Shown piece after piece: positions 1 through 566 of a DNA stretch of 566 nt. The notes beneath the pieces were generated by a model, which worked only from the letters and a program-made list of their open reading frames with translations, did not search any database and was not told where the DNA came from. Every line of letters begins with the position of its first letter. Position 1 is the stretch's first letter. A program made the translations under genes and the position numbers. Source of the stretch: Escherichia coli (lineage in GTDB: Bacteria > Pseudomonadota > Gammaproteobacteria > Enterobacterales > Enterobacteriaceae); NCBI RefSeq assembly GCF_003334405.1, contig NZ_QOWM01000063.1; one strand, given 5' to 3'.

Positions 1-57
1 GTCCTTCATCGCCTCTGACTGCCAGGGCATCCACCGTGTACGCTTAGTCGCTTAACC
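1..57 (-). rRNA. rrl: 23S ribosomal RNA, 5' end (partial; gene continues beyond the left edge of the window)
   Basis: Reverse complement of 1..57 reads GGTTAAGCGACTAAGCGTACACGGTGGATGCCCTGGCAGTCAGAGGCGATGAAGGAC, which matches the canonical mature 5' end of enterobacterial 23S rRNA as I recall it. Position 57 is the inferred mature 5' nucleotide; the exact end depends on processing. Confidence 0.93.
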
Positions 58-164
58 TCACAACCCGAAGATGTTTCTTACGATTCATCATCGTGTTGCG
101 AAAATTTGAGAGACTCACGAACAACTTTCATTGTTCAGTGTTTCAATTTTCAGCTTGATCCAGA

Positions 165-177
165 TTTTTAAAGAGCA
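165..177 (-). promoter_or_regulatory. boxA-like antitermination element in the spacer (minus-strand TGCTCTTTAAAAA)
   Basis: Reverse complement of 165..177 is TGCTCTTTAAAAA, one mismatch from the rrn boxA consensus TGCTCTTTAACAA. It sits between tRNA-Ala and 23S, where the spacer boxA lies in E. coli rrn operons. Function inferred from established knowledge of the rrn Nus-factor antitermination system, not from sequence alone. Confidence 0.55.
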
Positions 178-240
178 AAACTTCGCAGTGAACCTTTGCA
201 GGTACACTCTGAAGTATTTTTTATTTAATCACTACAGAGA

Positions 241-316
241 TGGTGGAGCTATGCGGGATCGAACCGCAGACCTCCTGCGTGCAAAGCAGGCGCTCTCCCA
301 GCTGAGCTATAGCCCC
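241..316 (-). tRNA. tRNA-Ala (anticodon UGC), 76 nt including encoded 3' CCA
   Basis: Reverse complement of 241..316 reads GGGGCTATAGCTCAGCTGGGAGAGCGCCTGCTTTGCACGCAGGAGGTCTGCGGTTCGATCCCGCATAGCTCCACCA. It has a 7-bp acceptor stem, a D-loop motif AGCTCAGCTGGGAGAGC, anticodon stem CCTGC/GCAGG with loop TTTGCAC (anticodon UGC; plus-strand gca at 281..283), a T-arm GGTTCGATCC and an encoded CCA end. It matches the E. coli spacer tRNA-Ala(UGC) as recalled. Which paralog (alaT/alaU/alaV) cannot be told from this window. Confidence 0.95.
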
Positions 317-358
317 ATAACATGTAGTTAAAACCTCTTCAAATTTGCCGTGCAAATT

Positions 359-435
<77 letters not shown>

Positions 436-503
436 GTAGAGGTTTTACTGCTCATTTTCATCAGACAATCTGTGTGAGCACTGCAAAGTACGCTTCTTTA
501 AGG

Positions 504-566
504 TAAGGAGGTGATCCAACCGCAGGTTCCCCTACGGTTACCTTGTTACGACTTCACCCCAGTCAT
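504..566 (-). rRNA. rrs: 16S ribosomal RNA, 3' end (partial; gene continues beyond the right edge of the window)
   Basis: Reverse complement of 504..566 reads ATGACTGGGGTGAAGTCGTAACAAGGTAACCGTAGGGGAACCTGCGGTTGGATCACCTCCTTA, the conserved 16S 3' terminal domain (helices 44-45) ending in the anti-Shine-Dalgarno sequence CACCTCCTTA (plus-strand taaggaggtg at 504..513). Position 504 is the inferred mature 3' nucleotide. Confidence 0.95.

Follow-up and report, generated by a model that had tools for sequence, protein, structure and literature searches.

A 66-codon open reading frame antisense to tRNA-Ala in an Escherichia coli rRNA spacer is almost certainly non-coding

RNA genes of the spacer and the frame opposite them

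The window, a stretch of 566 bases from Escherichia coli, is a 16S-23S rRNA spacer of the tRNA-Ile/tRNA-Ala type, read here on the strand opposite the rRNA transcript. ARAGORN, Rfam, RefSeq and K-12 gave the order, on one strand, of the 16S 3' end, tRNA-Ile(GAU), tRNA-Ala(UGC) and the 23S 5' end (Table 1), and no CDS is annotated at the locus in RefSeq, which, in one genome with the identical spacer, lists only 16S, tRNA-Ile, tRNA-Ala and 23S, all on the strand opposite the + strand of the window. The window was identical (100%) to sequence in many E. coli chromosomes, had a match in 5426 of the 5426 complete E. coli genomes searched and is conserved at 99% or above in most E. coli genomes. 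Its locus, gene order and RNA motifs are those of the E. coli rrnA, rrnD and rrnH spacers, with boxB-boxA and StyR-44; no difference was found from the E. coli tRNA-Ile/tRNA-Ala spacer, of which the open reading frame (ORF) discussed below is a reverse-strand reading, and the RNA features beneath that ORF are textbook. In strain 08-00022 the window's operon ends in 5S, tRNA-Thr and a second 5S and adjoins yrdA and aroE, which is the rrnD arrangement; the identical ORF is also found in K-12 rrnH.

Between the 23S 5' end and tRNA-Ala, the minus strand carries the elements of the pre-23S leader. The match to the 23S model falls below its gathering score because it is truncated. The boxA-like motif at 163-177 had no match in 200 shuffles. 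Spacer boxB-boxA elements are established in rrn operons; Berg et al. 1989, a paper cited in PMC2800207, names them in its title. The StyR-44 match spans the full model (positions 1-107 of 107) and lies just upstream of 23S; PMC2943607 describes StyR-44 as 109 nt of ribosomal operon sequence that precede 23S in all seven rrn operons and are possibly just a processing intermediate.

Table 1 Features of the 566-base window
Feature	Position	Strand	Evidence
23S rRNA 5' end	1-57	-	Rfam LSU model positions 1-57, 30.2 bits; RefSeq 23S annotation ends here
StyR-44 (RF01830), pre-23S leader segment	65-173	-	cmscan 123.3 bits (gathering score 54), E = 3.7e-21
In-frame TGA closing the frame upstream of the TTG; in-frame ATG at 71-73	107-109	+	sequence reading
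StyR-44 spacer hairpin, loop 126-129	116-140	-	StyR-44 consensus structure; centroid fold stem 119-136
Open reading frame, 66 codons, TTG start, TAA stop at 329-331	131-331	+	ORF listing; judged non-coding
boxA-like antitermination motif TGCTCTTTAAAAATC	163-177	-	single exact match; antisense inside the ORF
boxB-like hairpin, upstream of boxA on the rRNA strand	187-208	-	MFE and centroid folds; antisense inside the ORF
tRNA-Ala(UGC)	241-316	-	ARAGORN; Rfam tRNA model 65.6 bits; RefSeq tRNA-Ala; alaV in K-12
tRNA-Ile(GAU)	359-435	-	ARAGORN, Rfam
16S rRNA 3' end including the anti-Shine-Dalgarno CCTCC	504-566	-	Rfam SSU model positions 1471-1533, 61 bits; RefSeq

Apart from the 66-codon ORF on the + strand, no ORF in the window reaches 60 aa; the next longest, of 57 aa, lies on the minus strand, and the window has ten ORFs of 20 aa or more. 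A preliminary description made from the sequence had called this ORF an artefact lying opposite the rRNA transcript and fully covering tRNA-Ala, and the ARAGORN and Rfam placements of the RNA genes on the minus strand bear out that geometry: the tRNA-Ala gene lies wholly within the ORF, residues 37-62 of the peptide derive from the antisense of the tRNA, and RNA genes and motifs of the minus strand cover the span of the ORF. The same description had an ATG at 131 inside a spacer hairpin. The first codon does sit in the 5' arm of the hairpin at 116-140, as the complement of a CAA, but this codon is TTG (131-133), and the first in-frame ATG (251-253) lies inside the tRNA. An ORF of similar kind, with 39 aa and a TTG start, occupies 358-477 (+), antisense to tRNA-Ile.

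Signals of expression were evaluated around this start. No Shine-Dalgarno (SD) sequence was found before the TTG, as had been proposed; bases -20 to -4 scored +0.1 kcal/mol with the anti-SD, a value equalled or bettered at 74% of + strand positions. A scan for sigma-70-type consensus sites recovered no promoter-like site in the window or in the ~900 bases upstream. The length of the ORF is at chance level, since an ORF of at least 66 aa arose in 44% of 2000 dinucleotide-preserving shuffles of the window (mean longest 65.7), and therefore carries no signal. The peptide had also been called low-complexity and hydrophobic, and it is neither: it uses 19 residue types with an entropy of 4.02 bits of a possible 4.32, and it has a GRAVY of 0.00 and a best 19-residue hydropathy of 0.97. 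Two in-frame ATG codons lie on either side of the TTG. That at 71 is cut off from the ORF by the TGA at 107-109; that at 251 is preceded by an SD-like GGTGGAG (242-248), which is complementary to the acceptor stem and CCA end of the tRNA, with an upstream anti-SD duplex energy of -8.4 kcal/mol. Gene callers may be led by this coincidence to place starts within antisense tRNA-Ala.

Conservation of the frame and of the RNA on the opposite strand

Spacers from 11 Enterobacterales were retrieved by DNA similarity, not by gene calls, from PLSDB records holding rrn operons, and no CDS is annotated in any of the 11 according to the PLSDB gene table, which is incomplete. In the register of the E. coli ORF, these relatives have frames of 2 to 127 codons with differing starts and stops. 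Salmonella, Enterobacter ludwigii and Klebsiella aerogenes retain 24 aa read from the ATG inside the tRNA, K. pneumoniae has 93 aa, and Citrobacter freundii and Citrobacter sp. TSA-1 have 68 and 127 aa, respectively. The frames of Kosakonia (118 aa) and E. hormaechei (115 aa) continue through antisense tRNA-Ile, the antisense frames of the two tRNAs being fused into a single ORF, and in Serratia, Proteus and Providencia a start codon is absent before the tRNA. At least one indel that is not a multiple of three falls within the ORF span in 10 of the 11 relatives. Frame, start and stop are not conserved in Enterobacterales, as the artefact reading had anticipated. Even within one genome the ORF is not a unit, since K-12 rrnH carries the identical 66-aa frame intact while in K-12 rrnB, a Glu-type operon, the same TTG opens a 26-aa frame with only the first 16 residues in common.

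Several of the plasmid records are unusual in themselves. A twelfth record, CP044307.1 (plasmid pC27A-2, labelled E. coli), aligns with the spacer along 99% of the query but with only 79% identity, an unusually divergent rrn-like segment for E. coli, and was left out of the comparison as it had no antisense tRNA-Ala by the search pattern. The E. coli 'plasmid' records CP088420 and CP088766 hold frameshifted copies of the ORF on small rrn fragments; they may be assembly errors and were therefore not counted as evidence. Two other 'plasmid' records, NZ_OL790696.1 (4.8 Mb) and CP125156.1 (5.4 Mb), are chromosome-sized, while CP088634.1 (6.6 kb) and CP088420.1 (10.9 kb) are small circles of rrn fragments, and all four are probably mislabelled replicons or assembly artefacts.

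Variable alignment columns were then assigned to codon phases 1/2/3 of the E. coli frame. The counts were 11/18/12 for the nine Enterobacteriaceae (chi-square p = 0.37), 19/18/16 for all twelve sequences (p = 0.92) and 6/9/7 for the variable positions of tRNA-Ala, with no third-position excess of change in the nine, in the twelve or in tRNA-Ala genes at large. When 47 tRNA-Ala variants were compared codon by codon with the E. coli tRNA, 198 differences were non-synonymous and 105 synonymous, and the comparison of synonymous with non-synonymous change, which had been suggested as a check, gave no codon-level signal. The block at 140-195 includes boxA and shows almost no variation at any of the three codon phases in the 12 Enterobacterales, and the peptide VSIFSLIQIFKEQNFAV is therefore conserved wherever the frame agrees, as in K. 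pneumoniae and Citrobacter; taken alone, this conservation could be mistaken for that of a protein.

Conservation was instead found to follow RNA structure, as predicted in the preliminary description, with compensatory changes in RNA stems. RNAalifold on the 12 sequences gave four pairs with changes on both sides in the boxB-like hairpin. The hairpin that contains the start codon was not recovered by RNAalifold on the whole 12-species spacer alignment as that alignment was disrupted by insertions, among others in Citrobacter and Serratia, and its covariation was re-run on the insertion-free segments of seven Enterobacteriaceae. In these, 4 of 10 pairs had changed on both sides, although the four covarying pairs form two haplotypes (4 against 3 sequences) and may therefore represent a single evolutionary event. 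A stem change in this hairpin removes the TTG in Klebsiella, Enterobacter and Citrobacter. In the tRNA, the pair U49-A65 has become A49-U65 in Serratia, Proteus and Providencia, so that the only in-frame ATG reads AAG there. Standard pairing is kept in 985 of 987 stem pair cells over the 47 distinct tRNA-Ala sequences, and stems account for 16 of the 22 variable positions. The spacer boxA (163-177, -) reads TTTAAAAATC in all nine of the nine Enterobacteriaceae and TTTAACAATC in Serratia, Proteus and Providencia; the latter is presumably nearer to the boxA consensus of the rrn leader than TTTAAAAATC.

The antisense frame of tRNA-Ala and its database matches

The behaviour of the antisense frame outside this spacer was evaluated by scanning species-representative genomes with the 5' 27 bases of tRNA-Ala, which yielded 142 tRNA-Ala genes. 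The scan had been aimed at rrn spacers from many genera; 122 of the 142 were GGC-anticodon genes outside rrn operons, and they served as a change-of-context control, not as spacer homologues. The antisense frame used by the E. coli ORF was open through the whole tRNA in 137 of the 137 genes with a readable upstream limit (142 found). The other two antisense frames close 6-12 bases from the 5' end of the tRNA, a stretch covered by the fixed search pattern. The open frame extends past the tRNA by a variable distance (median 93-114 bases, counted from tRNA position 1). Of the individually listed genes, which were the 17 with a UGC anticodon, most have no start codon before the tRNA. Just 7 of 216 possible single-base changes in tRNA-Ala would give a stop in this frame. 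These results indicated that the tRNA's own sequence keeps the frame free of stops in every tRNA-Ala gene examined, whatever its genomic context, and that, given 137 open genes of 137 and so few stop-creating changes, the stop-free stretch is a passive property of tRNA-Ala and is not selected.

A protein search with the 66-aa sequence returned 325 matches, all unnamed or 'hypothetical protein' and mostly from contigs shorter than 1 kb. Among the 120 matches listed, the tRNA-derived residues 37-62 were covered by 117-119, residues 1-24 by only 8-44, and coverage changed sharply at the tRNA borders, rising from 70 to 110-119 across residues 35-37 and falling from 117 to 37 across residues 62-64. 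The flanks in these 120 measured 0-68 residues on the N-terminal side of the core and 1-87 on its C-terminal side. Several matches (P0021 and P0060 among them) are chains of several translated tRNAs, and one from Salmonella (P0063) has the spacer frame continuing into a different antisense tRNA frame. The view that such ORFs are a recurring source of spurious 'hypothetical proteins' agrees with these matches, which share only tRNA-derived residues.

The exact 66-aa product was not found among ~15 billion predicted proteins. The nearest entries (P0001, P0006 and P0018) have an amino acid where the window has the TGA at 107-109, which is read through, and the first residues of P0006 and P0018 are the MFL encoded from the in-frame ATG at 71; these entries may be real variants or sequencing errors. 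The two of the three that were checked come from E. coli contigs of 255-361 bases. Pfam-A gave no match beyond an uninformative ORC3_N at E = 0.092, and no NCBIfam family was matched by the 66-aa sequence. When the window was compared with plasmid records by BLASTN, similarity outside Enterobacterales was confined to window positions 241-320. Escherichia, mostly E. coli, is the commonest genus among the plasmid matches (573 records). Sampled rows, mostly E. coli plasmids of ~92-112 kb, match only a tRNA-Ala piece of 51-57 bases (window ~259-309) at ~86% identity, which suggests a tRNA-like sequence borne by plasmids or phage-plasmids.

Interpretation, alternatives and meaning for annotation

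Taken together, these findings leave us nearly certain that the ORF at 131-331 (+) is a non-coding open frame, a by-product of reading the antisense of the rrn spacer and tRNA-Ala, and from the absence of any coding signature we infer that nothing is likely to be translated from it. The frame arises as follows. One of the three frames antisense to tRNA-Ala is stop-free, and in E. coli this stretch runs by chance 131 bases further upstream, into the antisense of boxB/boxA and the pre-23S leader, where the first ATG, GTG or TTG of the open stretch is the TTG complementary to the CAA of a hairpin stem. All conservation in the region is explained by RNA elements of the opposite strand, namely tRNA-Ala, boxA, the boxB-like hairpin and StyR-44. 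The artefact interpretation offered earlier was thereby supported, its errors being confined to side details (the ATG and the peptide composition).

Three other readings were weighed. That the + strand is a functional antisense non-coding RNA against the pre-rRNA or tRNA-Ala, with the ORF incidental to it, is very improbable: the Rfam matches on this strand were all sub-threshold, comprising HPnc0260 (30.5 bits against a gathering score of 59), OxyS (17.5 against 75) and Plastid-ycf2 (17.6 against 65.7), and no promoter-like site of the sigma-70 type was found, while the rRNA strand accounts for all conserved blocks and covarying stems. With E-values of 0.3-0.8 and scores so far under gathering, the three matches were rejected as chance.

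Slighter still is the chance of a real 66-aa small protein, translated from the TTG at 131 on a rare antisense transcript of the rrn spacer, and the sequence would give a protein product of any kind from this ORF a similarly poor prospect. The intact frame, identical in the window and K-12 rrnH, its conservation at 99% or above in most E. coli genomes and the similar predicted proteins in public databases are what a small protein would lead one to expect, but this conservation belongs to the rRNA operon as such, Salmonella and most other Enterobacterales have lost the start and frame, and change shows no third-position excess. The lack of an SD and of a promoter-like site and the chance-level length also count against it, as does the fact that among ~15 billion predicted proteins no gene caller has ever called the exact product and that the curated annotation of K-12 MG1655 shows no CDS in the spacers of rrnH and rrnB. 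Studies of the ribosome-profiling or proteomic type commonly discard reads that come from multi-copy rrn DNA.

The least credible alternative, that only the short frame inside the tRNA is translated, from the ATG at 251 (MRDRTADLLRAKQALSQLSYSPI...) with GGTGGAG as its SD, could draw on the anti-SD pairing upstream of this ATG, on a peptide that is the part common to nearly all the matches listed and on invariance in Enterobacteriaceae, but this invariance is no more than the tRNA's, codon differences among tRNA-Ala variants are mostly non-synonymous, only 2 bases separate the SD-like run from the ATG, less than is usual, and no promoter was found; we rejected this ATG as a real start because the compensatory 49:65 swap in the tRNA stem removes it in three genera.

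Known spurious families offer the closest parallels to the preferred reading, that of a non-coding by-product. AntiFam catalogues 11 'Translated bacterial tRNA' families, Spurious_ORF_10 to Spurious_ORF_20, although the table of that paper gives neither the tRNAs nor the strands behind the 11 models, and the alignments of spurious families look protein-like because selection acts on the RNA strand (Eberhardt et al. 2012, PMC3308159). Likened by description, the ORF at 131-331 resembles these families in that its only widely conserved segment, residues 37-62, is translated tRNA and in that its database relatives are 'hypothetical proteins', some of them chains of translated tRNAs; it differs in that its N-terminal 36 residues come from the spacer (antisense boxB, boxA and StyR-44) and not from a tRNA. 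The former Pfam family PF10695 (Cw-hydrolase) was likewise an ORF antisense to rRNA (PMC3308159), with protein-like conservation made by selection on the opposite-strand RNA of an rrn operon. PF10695 lay over mature rRNA and was numerous enough to form a Pfam family, whereas the present ORF lies over spacer and tRNA, matches no Pfam family and has its exact product in no database searched.

A precedent for an expressed ORF antisense to rDNA does exist in yeast TAR1, which PMC3026818 describes as a real protein encoded antisense to 25S rDNA, with an immunodetected product and an ORF found across hemiascomycetous yeasts. TAR1 is, however, eukaryotic and its product has been detected, whereas the frame of the ORF at 131-331 is not kept even within Enterobacteriaceae and the ORF is known from sequence alone. 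That a low-level antisense transcript of the spacer might yield, from the 66-aa or the ATG 251 frame, an E. coli-specific micro-protein as a bacterial counterpart of TAR1 is hardly to be expected.

The meaning of these results is limited to annotation hygiene and involves no new biology: the ORF at 131-331 should not be annotated as a protein. Where contigs are short and RNA genes unmasked, gene callers emit 'hypothetical proteins', of which the 325 database matches are examples, and such proteins seem conserved across phyla because tRNA-Ala is conserved. ORFs opposite tRNA or rRNA-spacer sequence should be masked.
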